Positions 3,325 through 62,010 of a stretch of 64,000 bases of DNA are shown here, piece by piece. The position numbers were made by a program, and so were the translations under genes. Source of the DNA: Dehalococcoidia bacterium (lineage in GTDB: Bacteria; Chloroflexota; Dehalococcoidia; Bin125); NCBI GenBank assembly GCA_965205165.1, contig OZ242037.1:2443455-2507454 (forward strand), given 5' to 3'. Every line of letters begins with the position of its first letter. Position 1 is the stretch's first letter. Below the pieces are notes generated by a model. It saw nothing but the letters and a program-made list of their open reading frames with translations, did not search any database and was not told where the DNA came from.

Positions 3325-5811
3325 CTACTTGGAAACGACGAAGTTGAGCAGGCGGTCCGGCACCCACACGACCCGCCGCTCCGTCATCCCGTCGAGGAAG
3401 CCGGCCACCCGCCCCGATGCCCGCGCCGCGGCTTCCGCCTCCGCCTGCGCCGTGCCCGCCGGCAGCGCCAGCTTGTCCCGCACCTTGCCGTTCACCTGCA
3501 CCACCAGCGTCACCGTCTCCGCCGCCGCCAGCGCTTCGTCCCACTGCGGCCAATCTTGCAGGTGGATCGACGCCTCCCCGCCCCGCTTGCGCCAGAGCTC
3601 CTCCGCGATATGCGGCGCGGAGGGCGCGAGGCAGAGCAGCAGCGCGTCCACCGCAGCCTTCCAACCGCCCGCGTCGACCGGCCCGGCGTCGCGGGCCGCG
3701 GCCAGCGCGTTGGTGAACTTCATCATCGCCGCGATCATCGTGTTGAAGCGGAACCGCTCCATGTCGTGCGAAACCTCGCGCACCATCCCGTGCCGCAGCC
3801 GCGCCAGAGCATCGGCCGACTCCGCGTCTGCAAAGTCACCCGCGTCCTCCAGCGCCAGCGACCAGACCCGGTTGAGCCAGCGCCAGAGCCCTTGGATGCC
3901 GGAGTCGTCCCAATCGCCGCCCGCCTCCCAGGGCCCGATGAACATCAGGTAGAGCCGCACGGTGTCCGCGCCGAACTTGCCGACCCATTCATCGGGGTTG
4001 ACCACGTTGCCCCGGCTCTTCGACATCTTCGCGCCGTCTTTGGTGATCGTGCCCTGGTTGAAGAGCCGTGTGAATGGCTCGCGGATCGGCAGCACCCCCA
4101 TGTCGTTCGCCGCCATGCAGAAGAAGCGCGCGTAGAGCAGGTGCATCACCGCGTGCTCGGCTCCGCCCGTGTATTGATCGATCGGCAGCCAGTCCGCCGC
4201 CAGCCCCGGGTCGATCGGCGCATTGTGGTTGCGCGGATCGATGTAGCGGTACATGTACCAATTCGAGCACATGAACGTGTCCATCGTGTCGGTCTCGCGC
4301 CGCGCCTCCGCTCCGCAGTTCGGGCAGGGGGCATCGCGGAATTCCGCGTGCCGCTCGAGCGGCGAGCCCCCGTCCGGCAGGAACTCCGCGTCGTCCGGCA
4401 GCAGCACCGGCAGCTCCGATTCGGGCACGGGCACGATCCCGCAGTCCCCGCAGTGGATCATCGGAATCGGCGCACCCCAGTAGCGCTGCCGCGAGATCAG
4501 CCAGTCGCGGATGCGGTAGGAAACCGCCGGCTCGCCCAAGCCTCGCGCCTGCAGGGCGGCCGCCACGGCCGCCTTGCCCTCTTCCGACGGCGTGCCGTCG
4601 AACTCGCCGGAGTTCACCATCGTGCCGTGCCCGGCGTAGGCCTCCGCCTCCAGCGGTTCCCCCTCCCAGCCCGGCGGCGCGATCACCACGGGCACGTCGA
4701 GGCCGTACTTCCGGGCGAACGCGAAGTCCCGCTCGTCATGCGCCGGAACCCCCATCACCGCGCCGGTCCCGTACGTGAGCAGCACGTAGTCCGCGACCCA
4801 GATCGGAATGCGCTGATCCGTGAGCGGATGCCGCACATGCGATCCGGTGAACACCCCCGTCTTCTCGCGCTCGGTGGACTGCCGATCGATCTCCGACTGC
4901 TGCCGCGCCCCGGCCGCGTACCGGGCGACCGCCTCGCGCTGTTCCGGCGCGGTCAGCGCATCCACCAGCGGGTGCTCCGGCGCGATCACCATGAAGGTGG
5001 CGCCGAACAGCGTGTCGGGCCGCGTCGTAAAAACCGTGATCCGGTCTTCCTCCCCGATCGCGCGTTCGAGCGGGAACGAAACCTCCGCGCCCTCCGAGCG
5101 CCCGATCCAGTTGGTCTGCATCGCCTGGATGCGCTCCGGCCAGTCGATCCCCGAGAAGTCCAGCAGCTCGTCCGCGTAGTTGGTGATCCGGAAGAACCAC
5201 TGCTCCAGATCCCGCGTCTCGACGACCGCTTCGCAGCGCTCGCAGACCCCGATCCCGTCGTCTCGGCGCTCGACCTGCTCGTTGGCCAGCACCGTGCTGC
5301 AGCTGGGGCACCAGTTGGCCGCGGCCCGGCCGCGGTAGGCCAGCCCATGCTCGTAGAGCTTCAGGAAGAACCACTGCGTCCAGCGGTAGTACTCCGGATC
5401 GGAGGTGGCGAACTCGCGGTTCCAGTCGAACGACGCCCCCATCGTTTTGAGCTGCCGGCGCATCGCCTCGATGTTGTTGTAGGTCCACTTCTTCGGATGC
5501 GTCTCGTTCGCGATCGCCGCATTCTCCGCCGGCAGCCCGAATGCGTCGAAGGCCACCGGGAACAGCACGTTCGTCCCCTGCATGCGCCGCCAGCGCGCCG
5601 CCGCGTCGGAGGGCGACATCGCGTACCAATGCCCGATGTGCAGATCCCCGCTGGTGTACGGCAGCATCGTCAGGAAGAAGTAGTTGGGCCGGCCGGGGTC
5701 TTCGTCGGGCGTGCGGTAGAGGCCGTCGATCTCCCATTGCCGCTGCCAGCGCGGCTCGATCTCGGTCGGCTCGTAGCGATCGCGGCGCGGGGTTTCGGTC
5801 TCGGACGGCAT
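3325..5811 (-). CDS. leuS: leucine--tRNA ligase
   Basis: HIGH (DLHIGHWYAM) and KMSKS (KMSKSRGN) motifs, ~828 aa, editing domain present; start taken at MPSETETP (5811), ORF track extends to 5949. Confidence 0.94.
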   Translation of the reverse strand: MPSETETPRRDRYEPTEIEPRWQRQWEIDGLYRTPDEDPGRPNYFFLTMLPYTSGDLHIGHWYAMSPSDAAARWRRMQGTNVLFPVAFDAFGLPAENAAIANETHPKKWTYNNIEAMRRQLKTMGASFDWNREFATSDPEYYRWTQWFFLKLYEHGLAYRGRAAANWCPSCSTVLANEQVERRDDGIGVCERCEAVVETRDLEQWFFRITNYADELLDFSGIDWPERIQAMQTNWIGRSEGAEVSFPLERAIGEEDRITVFTTRPDTLFGATFMVIAPEHPLVDALTAPEQREAVARYAAGARQQSEIDRQSTEREKTGVFTGSHVRHPLTDQRIPIWVADYVLLTYGTGAVMGVPAHDERDFAFARKYGLDVPVVIAPPGWEGEPLEAEAYAGHGTMVNSGEFDGTPSEEGKAAVAAALQARGLGEPAVSYRIRDWLISRQRYWGAPIPMIHCGDCGIVPVPESELPVLLPDDAEFLPDGGSPLERHAEFRDAPCPNCGAEARRETDTMDTFMCSNWYMYRYIDPRNHNAPIDPGLAADWLPIDQYTGGAEHAVMHLLYARFFCMAANDMGVLPIREPFTRLFNQGTITKDGAKMSKSRGNVVNPDEWVGKFGADTVRLYLMFIGPWEAGGDWDDSGIQGLWRWLNRVWSLALEDAGDFADAESADALARLRHGMVREVSHDMERFRFNTMIAAMMKFTNALAAARDAGPVDAGGWKAAVDALLLCLAPSAPHIAEELWRKRGGEASIHLQDWPQWDEALAAAETVTLVVQVNGKVRDKLALPAGTAQAEAEAAARASGRVAGFLDGMTERRVVWVPDRLLNFVVSK

Positions 5812-5891: not shown

Positions 5892-6407
5892 ATGGAGGGC
5901 AGCGGCGTGGCCGGACAACCGTTGGTCGGCGTGATGATGGGCTCCGCATCCGACTGGGAGACGATGCGCAACGCGGCCCAGACCCTGCGCGACCTGGGCA
6001 TCGCCCACGAAGTGCGCGTGCTCTCCGCGCATCGAACGCCCGATCAGGCCGCCGAGTACGCGGCCACGGCGGCGGAGCGCGGCCTGCGCGTGATCATCGC
6101 AGGCGCGGGCGGTGCGGCCGCATTGCCCGGCGCGGTCGCCGCCAAGACCGACCTCCCCGTGATCGGCGTGCCCGTCAAGGGCTGGGCCACCGACGGGCTC
6201 GATTCGCTGCTCTCGATGGCCCAGATGCCCCGCGGCTTCCCCGTCGCCACCGTCGCCATCGGGCGCACCGGCGCCGTCAACGCCGCCCTGCTCGCCGCGC
6301 GCATCCTGGGCTTGGCCGACGCGGAGATCGCCGCCTCCGTGCGCGCCTTCCGCGAGCGGCAGACCCGCGAGATCCTCGACGCCCCGCCTCCCTCCCTGGA
6401 CGACTGA
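5892..6407 (+). CDS. purE: N5-carboxyaminoimidazole ribonucleotide mutase
   Basis: PLVGVMMGSASD...IIAGAGGAAALPG motif set typical of PurE; 171 aa. Confidence 0.9.
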   Translation: MEGSGVAGQPLVGVMMGSASDWETMRNAAQTLRDLGIAHEVRVLSAHRTPDQAAEYAATAAERGLRVIIAGAGGAAALPGAVAAKTDLPVIGVPVKGWATDGLDSLLSMAQMPRGFPVATVAIGRTGAVNAALLAARILGLADAEIAASVRAFRERQTREILDAPPPSLDD

Positions 6408-6413
6408 TCCCCG

Positions 6414-6947
6414 ATGGCGGTCCGCAAGATCACCACGCTGCCGGGCGACGCGCATGTGCTGCGCGCCCCGGCCCGCCCGGTCACCCGCTTCGACGCGACC
6501 CTGCGCGCCCTGCTCGACGACATGGCCGACTCGATGCACGGCGCGCGGGGCGTCGGCCTGGCCGCCCCCCAGATCGGCGTGCCCCTGCGCGTGATCCTGC
6601 TCGGCCTGCCCGGCCGCCCGCCGTTCCCGCTGATCAACCCCGAAGTGCTCGAACGCGGCGGCGAGCGCGAGATGACCGAGGGCTGCCTCTCCGTGCCCGG
6701 TTACCGCGGCGCCGTCCTGCGCTCCGAAACCGTGCGCGTGCGCGCGCTGGATCCGCAGGGCCGCGAGATCGAGATCGCCGCCGCCGGCGACCTGCTCGCC
6801 CACGCCTTGGAACACGAGATCGACCACATCAACGGAACCGTCTACATCGATCACGTGCAATCACCTGACGAATTGTGGCATTTGGACGAGCTGGAGCCGG
6901 ACGACGAAGAGGATGAAGAAGGCGGCGATGCCCGAGACGATGAGTGA
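6414..6947 (+). CDS. def: peptide deformylase
   Basis: GVGLAAPQIG, EGCLS and HEIDH metal-binding motifs; acidic C-terminal tail. Confidence 0.9.
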   Translation: MAVRKITTLPGDAHVLRAPARPVTRFDATLRALLDDMADSMHGARGVGLAAPQIGVPLRVILLGLPGRPPFPLINPEVLERGGEREMTEGCLSVPGYRGAVLRSETVRVRALDPQGREIEIAAAGDLLAHALEHEIDHINGTVYIDHVQSPDELWHLDELEPDDEEDEEGGDARDDE

Positions 6948-8349
6948 AGCCCTGCCGGCGCTGGCCGCGCTCGGCGAAGCCTGGGTCGTCGGCGGAGCCG
7001 TCCGCGATGCCCTGCTCGGCGCGCCCACGACGGACATCGACATCGCCGCGCCGGACGCGCCGGCCTGGTCCGCCCGCGCCGGTGCATTGCTCGGCGCGCG
7101 CCCCGTTGACCTGGGCGGGCCCCTGCCCACCTTCCGCCTCGCCCTGAACGGCGGCACGCTGGACGTGGTCGACCTGCCGCACGGCCTCGACGCCGACTTG
7201 GCGCGGCGCGACTTCACCATCAACGCCCTGGCCGTGCCCTTGCCCGATTTCGCCGCCGGCCGCATCCCCGAATCCGTGATCGACCGGCATGGCGGCCTGG
7301 CCGACCTGCAAGCCGGGCGCTTGGAGATCGTCTCCGACTCTGCAATCGGCGACGAGCCAATCCGCGCCCTGCGCGGCGTCCGGCTGGAAGCGACGCGGAA
7401 TCTGCGGCTGACGCAGCGCGCCGAGCAGGCGATCCGCGCGGCCGCCGACCGTGCCGCCGAGGTCGCCCCCGAACGAACTTGGGCCGAACTGTCCCGCATC
7501 TTCGACGCCGATACGGCGTCCGACGCGGTTCGGCGGCTCGAACAGCTCGGCCTGCTGACCCCCCTGTTCCCCGAACTGGACGCCTGCCGGGGCGTAGACC
7601 AACGCCCGATCCACCGCCGCGACGTCTTCAACCACCAGCTCGACGCGCTGGAGTACTTGGACGGCCTGATCGCCGACGCCCCGCACGGCGCGACGGCTGC
7701 GCTGCCCCCGCCGCTCTGGTCGGCGCTCGGCGATGACGCCCGCGAACGGATCGCCGCGGATCGCCGCTCCCTGCGGATCGCCGTGCTGTTGCACGATCTG
7801 GGCAAGCCCGGCACGCGCACCGTCGGCGAGGACGGACGCACGCACTTCTACGGGCACTCGGAGCTGGGCGCTGACCTCGCCACCGCCCGCCTGCGACGGC
7901 TGCGGGCGCCGCGGCGGCTGATCGACCGCGTCGAGCGCCTGATCGCCGCCCACCTGCGGCCGGGGATGATCGCCTCCCCCGGCGCACCGCCGACTGAGCG
8001 GGCGCTCTACCGCTTCCACCGCGATCTCGGCCGCGAAGCCGCGCCCCTCTGCCTGCTCTTCCTCGCCGACGCGCTGGCCACCGTCGGCCCCGATGCGCTC
8101 GCGCCCCGCTGGAATGCGTACGTCGCCCACGTCTCGCGGATCATCCGCTGGCAGCCGCGCCGCGTCCCGCGCGCGGCCCACTTCCTCAGCGGAACGGCCG
8201 TGATGGACGCCACCGGCCTGTCCCCCGGCCCCGAAATCGGCCGCATTCTGGCGGCGCTGGATGAAGCCGCCGCGCTGGGCGAGATCACCACCCCGGATGC
8301 GGCGCGGGAGCGGGCCCGCGAACTCGCCGCGCCCCCGTCAACGGGCTGA
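6940..8349 (+). CDS. cca: CCA-adding tRNA nucleotidyltransferase with HD domain
   Basis: GGAVRDALLG...DIDIA and RRDFTINALA polymerase-beta-like motifs, C-terminal HD-type region (LHDLGK); start ambiguous between 6913, 6928 and 6940 (overlap with def). Confidence 0.78.
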   Translation: MSEALPALAALGEAWVVGGAVRDALLGAPTTDIDIAAPDAPAWSARAGALLGARPVDLGGPLPTFRLALNGGTLDVVDLPHGLDADLARRDFTINALAVPLPDFAAGRIPESVIDRHGGLADLQAGRLEIVSDSAIGDEPIRALRGVRLEATRNLRLTQRAEQAIRAAADRAAEVAPERTWAELSRIFDADTASDAVRRLEQLGLLTPLFPELDACRGVDQRPIHRRDVFNHQLDALEYLDGLIADAPHGATAALPPPLWSALGDDARERIAADRRSLRIAVLLHDLGKPGTRTVGEDGRTHFYGHSELGADLATARLRRLRAPRRLIDRVERLIAAHLRPGMIASPGAPPTERALYRFHRDLGREAAPLCLLFLADALATVGPDALAPRWNAYVAHVSRIIRWQPRRVPRAAHFLSGTAVMDATGLSPGPEIGRILAALDEAAALGEITTPDAARERARELAAPPSTG

Positions 8350-8361
8350 GGAGGCCGCGCA

Positions 8362-8733
8362 ATGACCGAAACGATCCTGATCACCCTGCTCGTGGTCGCG
8401 CTCTTCTACATCTTCTTCATCCGCCCCGCCCGTTCCGAGCAGCGCCAGCGCCAGCACCACCTGAACGAGCTGCGGATCGGCGACCAAGTGCTCACCCGCG
8501 GCGGCCTGATCGCCGAGGTCAGCGGCGTCGAAACCCCCGACGACGGCCCCATGATGATCCTGCTCACCTTGGCCGACGGCGTCGAGGTCCGCGCCCGCAC
8601 CACGGCGATCGAGGAGGTGCTCGTCCCCGCCGAGCCGGATGAAGACGAACTCCGCGAAGAGGCCGCCCCGGCCCAAATGGACGAGGATGAACTTGACGAG
8701 GCCCCCTCCGGGCCGGGCAAGCGCGGGGACTGA
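8362..8733 (+). CDS. yajC: preprotein translocase subunit YajC
   Basis: Single N-terminal TM helix followed by ERQRQHHLNELRIGDQVLTRGGLIAEV, typical YajC; directly upstream of secD. Confidence 0.8.
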   Translation: MTETILITLLVVALFYIFFIRPARSEQRQRQHHLNELRIGDQVLTRGGLIAEVSGVETPDDGPMMILLTLADGVEVRARTTAIEEVLVPAEPDEDELREEAAPAQMDEDELDEAPSGPGKRGD

Positions 8734-56919: not shown

Positions 56920-57594
56920 ATGTCTCTCGGAGGATCGCCGATGGTGACCGCAACGGCACAGCCGCTCGATCAAGTCGAGGCAGCCGCGCAATCAGCCCTC
57001 GCGCACGGCAAGGCGCGCGTGTACCTCGGCTGCCCGATCACCGCCGACCTCCTCGAACTGCTGTCGGCGCGGCACGACGGCCTCGCCTTCGAAGGCGGGC
57101 GGGAAGGCGAGGTCATCATCAGCGGGGCAACGCCCGGTCTCATCCCCGAAGTCGGATCGCTCCTCAACGCCCAAGTCGGCAACTGCCTGCTCGCTCAAGG
57201 CGAGCGCGTCTCCCGCGCTCAAGACGGCGCATTCGATCCGCCCGGTTGGACGCCCAAAATCCCCGACCTCAGCTGGGTCAGCGCCCAACGCCGCGCCCTC
57301 GCCCTGCGCGACGGCAAGCTTCCCCCCTATTGGCCCGTCGCACCCGACTTCGTCGTCGAAATCGTCTCCGAAACTGACTCCCTCGCCGACCAGCTCGAAA
57401 AGATGGCTGGTTGGATCGAGCACGGCTCCCTGCTCGGCTTGGTCGTCGACCCACGCAGCGAAACCGTCTACGTCCACCGCCCCGGCAGCCCTGCCGAAGA
57501 ACACGCCAGCCCCGACGAGATTGACTGCCGCCCCGAGGTCCCGAACCTGATCCTCGACTTCGCCTCGATCTGGCGCTACCTGGCCGACGCCTGA
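56920..57594 (+). CDS. Uma2-family putative endonuclease, tandem paralog
   Basis: Same architecture; shares a >90% identical ~110-nt block (56621-56730 vs 57343-57452) with the upstream copy. Confidence 0.78.
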   Translation: MSLGGSPMVTATAQPLDQVEAAAQSALAHGKARVYLGCPITADLLELLSARHDGLAFEGGREGEVIISGATPGLIPEVGSLLNAQVGNCLLAQGERVSRAQDGAFDPPGWTPKIPDLSWVSAQRRALALRDGKLPPYWPVAPDFVVEIVSETDSLADQLEKMAGWIEHGSLLGLVVDPRSETVYVHRPGSPAEEHASPDEIDCRPEVPNLILDFASIWRYLADA

Positions 57595-58848: not shown

Positions 58849-58958
58849 GACAGCCCTCCGTTCCTTCCGCAGTCTAGGGACTGCTCAGCCGCTCCTGGGC
58901 CAAGCGCTGGACTCCACGCCGGCCGGCGCTTACCTTGCCGCAGCGGAAGGGGGCGGCA

Positions 58959-60095
58959 ATGGGCGGGAAGGCGCTAATCAGGCGGGCCGCGGGGCTGCTG
59001 GCCGCGGGCGTGTTGTTCGCCGCAGCGGCGACGGGCGTCTCCGCGGATGGAGGGGATGAAGAGGCCGCGGCTGAGGCCGCCCTGCAGCCGACGCAGGTGG
59101 TGGCGGAGATCCCCGACGGATACGGCGATCTCTTCCCGCTGGAATGGGGAGGAGGATCCCTCTTGCACCTCAAAGGACGACTCGCGACAATGGGTTGCAT
59201 TGCAGACACCATATGGGTGTACGACAACAATCAATGGCATCCATACAATCAATACCAAGTGCCTCACACGCTTGACATAATTCAAAGCTTCAAAAATCAA
59301 TACTCAGATTACATCCCTCCCACAACCATATATGCAGATTGCACAAACATCTGCGAATTCAACAACAACCGATGCATTCCTTTTCACGAGATGAGGGAAC
59401 AAAACAACAACTATGAAAACAGCTCTTTATTTATTGTTCCTCTCTCAGAAAACGACTCCTGCACCAGAAACTTCAACCCCAAAGTAACCACCCAAGTTCT
59501 CCCAACTCTTCCCGCCAGACCAGATGCCTGCATCGTAACCAAACAACGCATAAGCGGAAGAGGAATCAGAGGCGTTGCTCCCGGTCTTCCCGTTAACACA
59601 AATCCCTTTTTTGTGGTCTACGACGAATCCACCGCGTATCGCACCCCAACTGAACACTCAGACATTCTTCTTACAAGCGAAATCCACGAACTGTGTCACA
59701 TCAACCAAAATTGGCACTGGGTTCAACAACTCACGCACAATGCGTCCATCCAATACAAACCTCTTACTTACTTCTACGCCTCCCCCCACGGACAAACCTT
59801 CATACATATGGTAGGATACCAACGCAACAACGGCGGAACCTGGCTTCTTCCTCAAAACAGCGTGTACCGAGATATTTACTCAAAAGAACCAACTGAACTT
59901 GCGGCAGAACTCTGTTCAATGTATTTACTGGACAGAATGGGAGAACGAAGTAATTATGATTATGAAAAGTATAATTATGATGGAGTATATTATGAAGAAA
60001 TCCCTATTCGCAATACCAACCTCAGCAAATACCTCACCCCAGACATAACAGAATGGCTTGAAACCCATATGATCCTGCCGGAGATCGCCGATTAG
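58959..60095 (+). CDS. secreted Cys/Asn-rich protein with HExxH(x5)H zincin-like motif; C-terminal ~300 aa encoded by AT-rich foreign-looking DNA
   Basis: ATG 58959 after GGAAGGGGG RBS; signal peptide MGGKALIRRAAGLLAAGVLFAAAATGVSA; HELCHINQNWH at nt 59685-59717; ≥8 Cys; the listed ORF begins at TTG 58935. Confidence 0.72.
   Translation: MGGKALIRRAAGLLAAGVLFAAAATGVSADGGDEEAAAEAALQPTQVVAEIPDGYGDLFPLEWGGGSLLHLKGRLATMGCIADTIWVYDNNQWHPYNQYQVPHTLDIIQSFKNQYSDYIPPTTIYADCTNICEFNNNRCIPFHEMREQNNNYENSSLFIVPLSENDSCTRNFNPKVTTQVLPTLPARPDACIVTKQRISGRGIRGVAPGLPVNTNPFFVVYDESTAYRTPTEHSDILLTSEIHELCHINQNWHWVQQLTHNASIQYKPLTYFYASPHGQTFIHMVGYQRNNGGTWLLPQNSVYRDIYSKEPTELAAELCSMYLLDRMGERSNYDYEKYNYDGVYYEEIPIRNTNLSKYLTPDITEWLETHMILPEIAD
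59170..60075. other. compositionally anomalous AT-rich segment (~40% GC vs ~70% flanks) lying entirely inside one ORF and in frame at both junctions
   Basis: Sampled 60-nt stretches gave ~35% and ~45% GC by manual count; codon usage switches to AAT/AAA/TAT-rich; sharp transitions at ~59165 and ~60075. Confidence 0.8.
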
Positions 60096-60168
60096 CGGCT
60101 CCCGCCGCCTCAGGTCCGCGGTGTTGGTGACAGTACCGCCCTGAGCGCACTACGGCTAACCTCCCCGA

Positions 60169-62010
60169 ATGTCCCGTCTTCCAACGGCTGCCCCCGCCGA
60201 TGACCAGCGCCCGCTCGGCATGGACCTCCCGCGCCGGGCCAAGGCGCTCATTCTCGCCGGCTCGATGCTGGCCATGTTCATGTCCGCGCTCGAACAGAGC
60301 ATCGTCGGGCCCGCGCTCCCGCGCATCGTCTCCGACCTCGGCGGGCTCGACCTCTACCCCTGGCTCCTGCAGGCCTACATCACCGCGCAGATCGTCGCCA
60401 TCCCCGTCGCCGCGCGCCTCAGCGACCGCGCCGGGCGCAAGCGCGTCCTCGTCGCCGGCCTGCTCATTTTCCTCGCCGGCTCCGCGGCCTGCGGCGCTGC
60501 TCCGGGCATCTACTCCCTGATCGCCTTCCGCGCCGTGCAGGGCGCCGGCGCGGGCATCCTCGCCACGCTCTCCTTCGCCGTCGTCGGCGACCTCTTCCCG
60601 CCCGCCGAGCGCGGACGCTACATCGGGCTCTTCGGCGGCGTTTTCGCCCTCTCCAGCCTGATCGGCGCGCCGCTCGGCGGCGTCCTCACCGAGTTCGCCG
60701 GCTGGCGCTGGGTCTTTTGGGCGATGCTCCCCGCCGGCTTCGCCGCCGCCGCCCTGATCGCCCTGCGCATGCCCGCCCTCAAGCCGCGCGTGAGCGCCGC
60801 CCTCCGCTTCGACTACCTCGGCCTGATCGCGATGGCCGGCTTCCTCCTCCCCGTCATGTTCGCGCTCTCCCTCGCCGGCCCGCTCGGCTGGGCCTCCCCG
60901 CCCGTGCTCGCCCTGTTCCTCGTCTCCGCCGCCTCCCTCGCGCTCTTCATCGCCGTCGAGCGCCGCGCCGCCGAGCCCATCGTCCCCTTCCACCTCTTCC
61001 GCATCCGCAACGTCGCGGTCACCGCCGTTTCCATGCTCGTCATCGGCCTCGGCATGTTCGGCTCCATGATCTACCTGCAATTCTTCCTCCAGGTCGGCCT
61101 CGGCGCCGACGCCACCACGGCCGGCGCGGTGATGGGGCCGATGGTGATCTTCGTGGTCGTCTTCTCCGTCATCGCCGGCCAGATCATGTCACGCACCGGC
61201 CGCTACAAGTTCATCGCCGTCATCGGCGCGATCCTCATGCTCGCCGGCATGCTCCTGCTCGCCGCCATGTCCCGCCACACGCCCGTCCCCGCCGTGCTGC
61301 TCCGCCTCGGCCTCTTCGGCGCGGGCATGGGCATGCTGATGCCGGTCCTCACGCTCGGCGCGCAGAACGCCGCGCCCCAGCGCTACCTCGGCACCATCTC
61401 CGGCTTCACCCAGTTCTTCCAGCTCGCCGGCGGAGCGGTCGGCATCGGCGTGATCGGCGCGCTCTTCAACTCCCGCCTCGCCGCCGGCCTCCAGTCCCGC
61501 CTCGACCCCGCCGCGGCCGCTCTCATCCGCCCCGAGAAACTCGTCGACCCGATCTTCCGCGACAACCTCCTCGCCGACCTCGGCCCCGAAGCCTGGGCCG
61601 CCGCCGAACCCCAGGTCCAAGCCGCCGTCGCCGACGCGGCCACGGCCAACTTCCTGCTCGGCGCGGCCATCCTCGTCGTCGCCCTCCTCGCCGTCCTCTG
61701 GATCCGCGAACTCCCCCTCCGCACCGGCAATGAAGGCGCAGCCGCCGCGCCCGCTCCTCCCCCGCCGCGCCTCGACCGGCCGAATCAGCCGCCCGCCCCG
61801 CCCATGCCTCTTCCGAACGCCGCAGCGCCCGCGACCGCCCCCTTCGCCGCCGTCGCCCTGCAAGCCGCCCCCCGCTCGCCTCCGCGAATCGACCGCCCTC
61901 GCGCGTCCTCTCCGTCCCGCGCCCTCGCCGCCGTCCTGCTCGCCGCCGGCGCGGGCGTCGCGATCGCCCTCGCCTTCCCCGGGCTGCCGACCCTCCGCCC
62001 GCGCCGATGA
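60169..62010 (+). CDS. MFS transporter, 14-TMS drug:H+ antiporter (DHA2/EmrB-QacA-like) with Pro/Ala-rich C-terminal tail
   Basis: MFS motif A-like RLSDRAGRKRVL, 14 predicted helices; ~110-aa low-complexity PAPPPP tail plus a final hydrophobic segment. Confidence 0.86.
   Translation: MSRLPTAAPADDQRPLGMDLPRRAKALILAGSMLAMFMSALEQSIVGPALPRIVSDLGGLDLYPWLLQAYITAQIVAIPVAARLSDRAGRKRVLVAGLLIFLAGSAACGAAPGIYSLIAFRAVQGAGAGILATLSFAVVGDLFPPAERGRYIGLFGGVFALSSLIGAPLGGVLTEFAGWRWVFWAMLPAGFAAAALIALRMPALKPRVSAALRFDYLGLIAMAGFLLPVMFALSLAGPLGWASPPVLALFLVSAASLALFIAVERRAAEPIVPFHLFRIRNVAVTAVSMLVIGLGMFGSMIYLQFFLQVGLGADATTAGAVMGPMVIFVVVFSVIAGQIMSRTGRYKFIAVIGAILMLAGMLLLAAMSRHTPVPAVLLRLGLFGAGMGMLMPVLTLGAQNAAPQRYLGTISGFTQFFQLAGGAVGIGVIGALFNSRLAAGLQSRLDPAAAALIRPEKLVDPIFRDNLLADLGPEAWAAAEPQVQAAVADAATANFLLGAAILVVALLAVLWIRELPLRTGNEGAAAAPAPPPPRLDRPNQPPAPPMPLPNAAAPATAPFAAVALQAAPRSPPRIDRPRASSPSRALAAVLLAAGAGVAIALAFPGLPTLRPRR

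Follow-up and report, generated by a model that had tools for sequence, protein, structure and literature searches.

How can a single bacterial reading frame hold two DNA compositions? The question is raised by a 64,000-nucleotide stretch of DNA from a Dehalococcoidia bacterium (contig OZ242037.1 of assembly GCA_965205165.1), hereafter called the window, which contains one gene whose beginning is written in the GC-rich style of the genome and whose remainder is mostly AT-rich. An original prediction, made from the letters of the window, took the AT-rich part to be a foreign cassette recently acquired by this strain and joined to a resident secretion leader. We favor a different explanation, to which we give a probability of roughly 0.72: the AT-rich segment belongs, as the variable body, to one member of a recombining family of predicted secreted, disulfide-rich, HExxH zincin-like proteins that is lineage-restricted and has several copies per genome. 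Members of this family are modular and numerous, are mosaics of one another, replace one another at a given locus, and have bodies of stationary composition. What is new here is a zincin-like family in which a change of composition inside the gene is a conserved feature of the members.

Two compositions in one reading frame

The open reading frame (ORF) runs from an ATG at 58959 (an alternative TTG lies at 58935) to a stop codon ending at 60095, encodes 378 amino acids, keeps its frame throughout, and entirely encloses the AT-rich segment. Positions 59160-60075 have a GC content of about 44%, versus 70% for the genome. Measured over 200 nucleotides (nt), GC is 0.69-0.75 at 58900-59199, falls to 0.38-0.51 at 59200-60099, and then goes back to 0.69-0.75. 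When the 64-kb window is scanned by the kilobase, a lone kilobase lies below 0.64 (at 0.484) and the rest lie at 0.65-0.77. Codons 1-70 have a GC at third positions (GC3) of 0.81; in the remainder, which we call the body, GC3 drops to 0.48. With 28 native ORFs of the window (GC3 0.83-0.98) as the reference, codon adaptation is 0.67-0.87 for those ORFs, 0.54 for the leader, and 0.225 for the body, and rare codons make up 2.3%, 2.9%, and 31.5% of the three, respectively. The GC windows and the ORF map bear out the predicted in-frame segment of about 900 bp, and the drops in sliding GC and codon adaptation that were to be looked for are present. The 3′ junction stands where it had been placed, at about 60075 (the return falls at ~60070-60075). 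The 5′ junction, put at about 59170, is real but begins slightly further upstream, with the switch spanning ~59145-59200.

Read on the coding strand, the body has base frequencies of A.34, C.28, G.16, and T.22. The + strand of the whole window (1-64000) shows an extreme asymmetry of C.418 versus G.277. Third codon positions hold C.67 and G.21 in + strand genes, and G.60 and C.33 in - strand genes when read on their own coding strand. The silent sites of the body carry the same local excess of C over G (C3.38, G3.10). Over 12 loci of the family, body skew follows flank skew with a rho of 0.89, although this correlation is no more than suggestive because the loci are phylogenetically dependent. 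As a separate observation, six sigma-70-like hexamer pairs lie within the AT-rich body (window 59221-60073), versus 1.0 in shuffled sequences, and this excess suggests a potential for spurious intragenic transcription.

The composition boundaries fall at conserved motifs

Handles such as L016 are used below for contigs or loci that carry other members of the family, and GC-type and AT-type refer to the composition of a gene part. In every AT-type paralog, GC3 drops after a WGGGS-coding motif. In genes with one copy of the N-module, the domain that lies upstream in the protein, the drop comes around codon 62-75, just past WGGGS. Where two modules are present, the entire first one is GC-type and GC3 falls past the second WGGGS. 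The nucleotides of the motif are conserved across GC-type genes, AT-type genes, and genes of low-GC hosts. The sequence TGGGGAGGNGG and the next ~60 nt are common to AT-type genes and low-GC-host genes, and the codons upstream of TGGGGAGGNGG are GC-type in GC-rich hosts only. The junction thus does not coincide with the end of the signal peptide; it sits inside the conserved N-module, just past WGGGS.

The other end of the body has a comparable arrangement. Right after the 3′ anchor TGGCTTGAAACCYATATGAT, the window gene, L020, L016, and the distantly related L001 have one common GC-type tail. L015 (89% identical to the window protein) and L018 have AT-type tails, although their bodies resemble that of the window gene more closely, and in both of them AT-rich DNA runs 250-300 nt beyond the stop codon. 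Thus, the tail type switches exactly at the anchor, and the GC-type tail is common to different body clades. Because the GC3 drops and the tail swap are located at conserved motifs, these alignments indicate that the DNA changes composition at points of recombination within the reading frame.

Two observations concern the DNA past the stop codon. Directly 3′ of the gene in L018 (7160-7200), in a 70% GC genome, there is an AT-style intrinsic terminator hairpin (CAACCAAAAGAACGCC / GGCGTTCTTTTGGTTG, then T-rich) that looks like a leftover of a low-GC donor context. In L015 (7150-7430) and L019 (7140-7420), the ~300 nt of additional AT-rich DNA past the stop contain a small ORF for a Cys-rich, very basic protein of 91 amino acids (MRSMHCKNCGRKCY...), whose sole match is a weak one to a PHROG endonuclease (E 0.035).

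Mosaicism, replacement, and concerted evolution

In a related strain (L020), the gene lies at the syntenic locus, in the order Uma2, Uma2, Aminotran_3, family gene, and major facilitator superfamily (MFS) transporter. The flanks of the two loci are 97-99% identical, but positions 59308-60057 are just 79-87% identical, with no gaps. The neighboring aminotransferase has a synonymous divergence (dS) of 0.083 and a nonsynonymous divergence (dN) of 0.004. In the family gene, codons 0-115 have a dS of 0.056, and codons 115-378 have a dS of 0.47 and a dN of 0.119. Relative to the adjacent gene, therefore, dN of the body is 30 times and dS about 6 times as high. For the gene, dN/dS is 0.1-0.3. The 140 differences between the window and L020 are clustered (e.g., 18 in 30 nt) and involve all four bases. 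In many 45-nt segments, the window gene is closer to the other-locus paralogs L015 and L019 than to L020. Because these patches match paralogs better than the ortholog, the pattern of differences points to mosaic gene conversion.

Whole genes are exchanged as well. At a locus between DAO and AIRS genes, the flanks of L001 and L016 are 96.5-98% identical, but the family members between them differ. One encodes a 490-amino-acid two-module protein and the other a 377-amino-acid one-module protein, whose leaders are 49% identical and whose bodies are 42% identical, and homology returns 43 nt ahead of the stop codon. By this alignment, the whole gene has been swapped for a different family member. 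Within genomes, leaders that are 89-100% identical sit atop bodies that are 30-44% identical. Since minor leader variants are common to copies of the same sample and not to orthologs, the 5′ module shows concerted evolution. Leader type and body clade travel together over three or more loci.

When 14 family proteins were compared by tblastn with 20 loci (~10 kb around each), only full-length copies and no silent promoterless cassettes were found. A simple model in which homogenization by conversion makes DNA GC-rich is a poor fit, given that positions 59194-59283 are 100% identical in five copies and yet AT-rich.

A probably old body of stationary composition

Low-GC bacteria also carry the family. 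L017, a 151-kb contig of 41% GC from the same sample as the GC-rich L018, has two tandem copies (6001-7203 and 7349-8482) with native AT-type leaders and bodies of 44% GC. Members from low-GC hosts are scattered over a rough neighbor-joining (NJ) tree. For every major clade from GC-rich hosts, the closest low-GC-host relative stands at 51-53% identity, and these relatives are closer to the GC-host clades (~50%) than those clades are to each other. Among 5.8e9 proteins, samples with both host types included, there was no low-GC/GC-host pair more than 53% identical. Such a distribution is what several transfers between hosts of low and high GC would leave if they were old, and it argues against a recent one. 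Because the low-GC relatives are at most 53% identical, the low-GC origin would be old. The suggestion of a low-GC bacterial source remains plausible, given the low-GC contigs on which the family has native composition and the AT-rich DNA past the stop in L018 and L015. We found nothing in support of the eukaryotic source that had been mentioned beside it.

The body also gives no sign of moving toward the composition of its genome. Substitutions were polarized in six genes of the window's clade, with L018 as the outgroup, by counting ingroup singletons in the body. There were 32 AT-to-GC changes versus 31 GC-to-AT changes, and amelioration to a GC3 of 0.9 predicts that 91% should be AT-to-GC (p ~1e-17). 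Third positions alone gave 17 versus 15 (p ~4e-8). The equilibrium GC implied by the polarized changes is 0.45-0.51. Within these alignments, the counts show a body composition that is stationary at about 45-50% GC, with no amelioration. The idea of a recent, strain-specific acquisition does not survive these results, which include the syntenic gene of L020, about 100 members with the same layout, low-GC relatives that do not exceed 53% identity, and substitutions that show no amelioration. The proposed comparison of related loci likewise speaks against strain specificity, with the gene present in L020 between flanks that are 97-99% identical.

Hosts and distribution of the family

The window protein has at least 185 homologs, all unnamed and nearly all from ENA assemblies, with several per chromosome of 2.6-2.85 Mb. 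A profile search of 1.84e9 cluster representatives gave 157 clusters. A collection of species-representative genomes yielded 13 loci, of which 12 carry the title 'MAG: Dehalococcoidia bacterium' (MAG, metagenome-assembled genome) and the 13th belongs to the low-GC MAG SB0662_bin_43. Genomes carry at least 4-6 copies. Twelve loci of independent assemblies have a GC-rich start, a body of 36-45% GC, and flanks of 63-71% GC, and an identical architecture is found in four ENA samples and several GenBank MAGs, closed chromosomes included. In other Dehalococcoidia, there are copies with bodies of ~59-60% GC, and L011 is a fully native paralog (GC 0.69, GC3 0.89) in the same genome as AT-type copies. 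For 170 full-length members, the nucleotide class was assigned by an amino-acid-composition proxy for leader and body. By this proxy, 97 members switch from a GC-type leader to an AT-type body, 29 are GC-type in both parts, and 23 are AT-type in both.

Searches for the family in the JGI metagenome collection, for relatives in IMG/VR, for exact copies of the window protein and its neighbor, and in a first genome scan with a single-sequence query gave no match. A literature search found no description of the phenomenon or of the accessions, and no source that names the family. Neighboring genes differ at every family locus and are housekeeping-like. No synteny of family loci between species was found, and therefore the divergence could not be calibrated by deep orthologs. 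Bins prefixed SB0662 appear among sponge-associated Entoporibacteria (PMC7883664), and the GC-rich Dehalococcoidia hosts are probably sponge-associated too. In the CBDESM01 genome, the copy at L012 (5001-6357) may be disrupted, as a pseudogene or by a frameshift: its longest ORF stops at 5942, and the tblastn match continues to 6357.

A predicted zincin-like secreted protein

The N terminus looks like a native signal peptide, as had been supposed, with Sec-like n, h, and c regions (..ATGVSA/DG) judged by eye and an acidic linker next. Residues 1-38 are disordered or helical in a confident AlphaFold2 model of the protein, which has a mean predicted local distance difference test score (pLDDT) of 85.8 and a predicted template modeling score (pTM) of 0.84. 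The N-module occurs in 1-3 copies among family members and has invariant cysteines C80, C128, C132, and C139. In the body, the motif EIHELCHxNQ contains E241, H243, E244, C246, H247, and Q250, each invariant in 69 sequences. A second motif, P.ELSAELC, has invariant E313, L314, A316, and C319, and E317 is present in at least 90%. Overall, eight cysteines are invariant. The HExxH lies in a modeled helix at 230-257, and the second motif, with both of its glutamates, lies in a predicted helix at 311-327. The region of E313 and E317 is a candidate for the helix with the third zinc ligand, and C246 and C319 may form a disulfide that would staple the two putative active-site helices together.

Metzincins have the motif HExxHxxGxxH/D, with a conserved third histidine and glycine, and a Met-turn downstream. 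The window protein had been likened to them by the spacing of HELCHINQNWH (residues 243-253) and by a possible Met-turn in FIHMVGY. The HExxH is invariant, as that comparison demands, but the third histidine, H253, varies among H, Y, and Q, and the glycine position is occupied by the invariant Q250. The FIHMVGY region has the consensus FIxLVGF, in which just F281 and G286 are near-invariant and the methionine is not conserved. Because neither the third histidine nor the Met-turn is conserved, we do not regard the protein as a metzincin.

The broader suggestion of a secreted metalloprotease fares better, given the invariant HExxH and a fold search whose top matches are zincin proteases only. 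At the fold level, the nearest proteins are gluzincins of the anthrax lethal factor/Pro-Pro endopeptidase type (MEROPS M34, ATLF-like) and minimal zincins like SprT/Wss1. Foldseek gave no match against the PDB, and no curated peptidase family, MEROPS M34 and Pfam ATLF included, was matched by its profile. An extracellular metalloprotease of the gluzincin type, or else a protease-like binder, is the most likely product, with a surface under pressure to vary. The family can be defined by a signal peptide, a module in 1-3 copies without a fold match, and a predicted disulfide-stapled HExxH/ExxAE domain. Because these genes diverge far faster than their neighbors, the family is a prime candidate for interaction with hosts, competitors, or phages in a largely uncultured symbiont lineage.

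How the chimeric genes might have arisen

Copies of the family are modular: a GC-type 5′ module (putative promoter, Shine-Dalgarno [SD] sequence, predicted signal peptide, and N-module up to WGGGS) is followed by an AT-type body and, in many cases, by a tail that is again GC-type. The AT-type body was most likely acquired long ago from low-GC bacteria in which the family also occurs, and homologous recombination at the WGGGS-coding motif would have joined it to 5′ modules already resident. The chimeric genes would then have multiplied to at least 5 per genome and diversified through segmental gene conversion and whole-gene replacement between loci. The conserved ends would serve as recombination anchors, and leaders would be homogenized within a genome. 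Because the body is not ameliorating toward the genomic GC3 of ~0.9, it seems to escape or resist whatever force keeps the rest of the genome GC-rich.

Some points weigh against this account. Composition could have distorted the NJ tree, itself a rough one. The counts of polarized changes are small, and some of these changes came in from other AT-type copies through conversion. The composition proxy, on which the class counts depend, has been checked against DNA at only some 20 loci, and the link to sponges is indirect, via the SB0662 sample naming for L013. Finally, the window protein has no match in Pfam or NCBIfam, and sequence-profile searches of the PDB returned no protease and no sequence-level link to a peptidase family.

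Other explanations must be set against the same data. An assembly or binning chimera, or a pseudogene, deserves almost no credence. The abrupt change of composition alone speaks for it, and an assembly chimera is rejected because the architecture recurs in independent assemblies, among them closed chromosomes, and because selection on the gene is purifying. Moreover, the ORF is uninterrupted, and the junction lies within a conserved protein motif. The recent joining of a foreign low-GC cassette to a resident leader in this strain would account for the sharp switch in composition and codon usage, for the presence of the family in low-GC bacteria of the sample of one relative (L018), and for the AT-rich DNA that extends past the ORF in L018 and L015. 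We nevertheless consider it very improbable, given that L020 holds the gene at the syntenic locus, that deeply diverged paralogs and other species have the same layout, that the best low-GC-host relative is 51-53% identical, and that the stationary body already shows the local C-over-G strand bias at its silent sites. More can be said for continuing import, in which bodies are repeatedly re-imported at the two anchors from unsampled low-GC donors and the apparent stasis is replenishment. The junctions do coincide with nucleotide motifs common to GC-host and low-GC-host genes, each major GC-host clade does have a low-GC-host relative at ~50% that is closer than the other GC-host clades, and AT-type tails do extend beyond the stop in some copies. 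However, no close pair of low-GC and GC-host proteins turned up among the 5.8e9 proteins, even in samples holding both, and the joint travel of leader type and body clade indicates the spread of already-chimeric genes within GC-rich hosts. Thus, we judge continuing import to be rather improbable.

Perhaps AT-richness is itself selected, either as a binding platform for a nucleoid-associated silencer, which would permit expression that is conditional or limited to one copy at a time, or as a rare-codon brake on the translation of a Cys-rich secreted protein. The H-NS and Lsr2 regulons offer an analogy for silenced AT-rich DNA. The stationary composition amid a genome-wide GC3 of 0.83-0.98 is consistent with such selection, as is the excess of promoter-like sites in the body, which are the usual reason that silencers target AT-rich DNA. 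The GC-type L011 alongside AT-type copies in one genome also implies that the AT state is gene-specific. Yet clades with bodies of 59-60% GC, and one of 69%, keep every motif, and therefore neither the protein nor its expression depends strictly on AT-richness. Moreover, we know of no silencer in Chloroflexota (none was looked for here). Selection on AT-richness is, on balance, unlikely.

Within the preferred reading of a recombining family with old AT-type bodies, it is possible, and we propose it tentatively, that these bodies represent a stable compositional state that is actively kept in single genes of a 70% GC genome. Our leading idea is that genome GC might be kept high by a recombination-linked fixation bias, which would be powerless on a segment that is exchanged as whole divergent cassettes between conserved anchors. 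Alternatively, an undescribed silencing system of Chloroflexota might read AT-richness and produce variegated expression of a host-facing, hypervariable protease family. If the former idea is true, these genes would be a natural experiment, showing the equilibrium to which AT-biased mutation by itself would bring the DNA of a high-GC bacterium. In any event, leaders with native codons joined to bodies that do not ameliorate are a test case for how bacteria maintain high GC and how 'foreign' composition persists. They are also a caution that an intragenic segment of atypical GC is not necessarily a recent transfer.

Further candidates were considered and set aside. A target of a diversity-generating retroelement fits poorly, with no second copy of any portion of the unit in the 64-kb window and differences that are not adenine-specific (no separate search for a reverse transcriptase was made). 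Polymorphic toxins and contact-dependent inhibition systems differ in that all bodies here are homologous and carry the same motifs, with no adjacent immunity gene; the earlier statement that no immunity-like small ORF adjoins the gene holds. A phage or defense origin finds no relatives in IMG/VR and no match in PHROG or PADLOC. For a transposon-like unit, no convincing terminal repeats were seen.

Comparison with known diversifying systems

Several multigene families, such as Neisseria pilE/pilS, Borrelia vlsE, and Anaplasma msp2, are diversified by segmental gene conversion. The present family resembles them in having many paralogs per genome and mosaic patches that match other copies. Conotoxins and the mycoplasma Vsp/Vlp proteins have conserved leaders ahead of hypervariable mature regions with a Cys framework, and here too leaders that are 89-100% identical precede diverged bodies in which the Cys framework is conserved. 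Unlike pilE/pilS-type systems, no promoterless silent cassettes were seen, and the seven copies aligned upstream all have the promoter-like site. Unlike pilE/pilS and Vsp/Vlp, the product is an enzyme-like globular protein and not a pilin or lipoprotein, and variation is known here from sequences of separate genomes. The compositional chimerism of the family has no counterpart in either the gene-conversion or the conserved-leader systems.

Persistently low GC is a property of the O-antigen and capsule clusters of enterobacteria, which are hypervariable loci replaced through conserved flanks, and may also be compared with xenogeneically silenced AT-rich islands. The family shares with the O-antigen and capsule loci a low GC without amelioration, a high allelic diversity, and replacement via conserved flanks. 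It differs in that the unit is part of one gene with in-frame junctions, in a host of ~70% GC, and is multi-copy per genome. A more distant parallel is offered by mammalian 'outward-looking' gene arrays, which Brovkina et al. (2023, PMC10463633) describe as AT-biased, a bias that they attribute to tolerance of variation and low recombination. Both cases involve fast-diversifying, environment-facing genes that are AT-rich relative to their genome, but ours is bacterial and recombining and has an intragenic boundary, as opposed to eukaryotic isochores.

Parts of the gene unit and its neighborhood

Relative to the ORF, the copied unit starts near -75 and ends near +53 (window 58884-60148); its parts are listed in Table 1. 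The TA.C.T element and the SD sequence are kept in 7/7 aligned upstream regions. Within the body, a conserved stretch of ~150 nt comes first, and 59308-60057 forms a hypervariable mosaic.

Table 1. Parts of the family gene in the window, with coordinates on the 64,000-nucleotide stretch
Feature	Coordinates	Strand	Comment
GC-type upstream module	58884..58958	+	Common to paralogs at other loci (blastn similarity to L016 starts at 58884)
Promoter-like TGGACT, 17-nt spacer, TACCTT	58908-58913; 58931-58936	+	Putative promoter, by inference
SD-like GGAAGGGGG	58945-53	+	In upstream module
Predicted Sec signal peptide, amino acids 1-29, MGGKALIRRAAGLLAAGVLFAAAATGVSA/D	58959..59045	+	Native GC-rich codons, GC3 0.87-0.93
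GC-type linker and first N-module strands	59046..59159	+	Ends at WGGGS-coding motif
WGGGS-coding motif TGGGGAGGAGGATCC	59145-59159	+	Putative 5′ recombination anchor; composition junction
N-module, amino acids 42-139	59082..59375	+	Predicted alpha/beta domain without fold match; 4 invariant Cys
AT-type body	59160..60053	+	GC ~0.44, GC3 ~0.48
HELCH, the invariant HExxH (H243, E244, C246, H247)	59685..59699	+	Invariant in 69 sequences
ELAAELC (E313-C319), candidate third-ligand 'glutamate helix'	59895..59915	+	Conservation and predicted helix 311-327
Putative 3′ recombination anchor TGGCTTGAAACCCATATGATC, encodes WLETHMI	60054..60074	+	Nucleotides near-invariant in AT-type copies
GC-type 3′ tail: last 6 codons, stop (60093-60095), ~53 nt beyond	60075..60148	+	blastn similarity to L016 ends at 60148

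Three minor observations concern the surroundings of the gene. A conserved, GC-rich insert of ~70 nt lies between the promoter-like site and the SD sequence in L001 (5913-5985) and in L002, L004, and L008 (~4910-4985); the window copy is without it. Two hairpins are predicted in this 5′ untranslated region insert, one of them GCCGGC-GAGA-GCCGGC. It has no match to a known RNA element in Rfam, and the four sequences offer too little covariation. Genes of the Uma2 family (putatively restriction-endonuclease-like) adjoin several family loci, at 56920-57594 in the window, 3254-4636 in L020, and 1-308 in L001; Uma2 is single in the ORF list of the window and paired in L020. Downstream, the MFS transporter ORF (window 60169-62010) has a long, Pro/Ala-rich C-terminal extension (..AAAPAPPPPRLDRPNQPPAPPMPLP..), and its ortholog as called in L020 is shorter, at 596 versus 613 amino acids.

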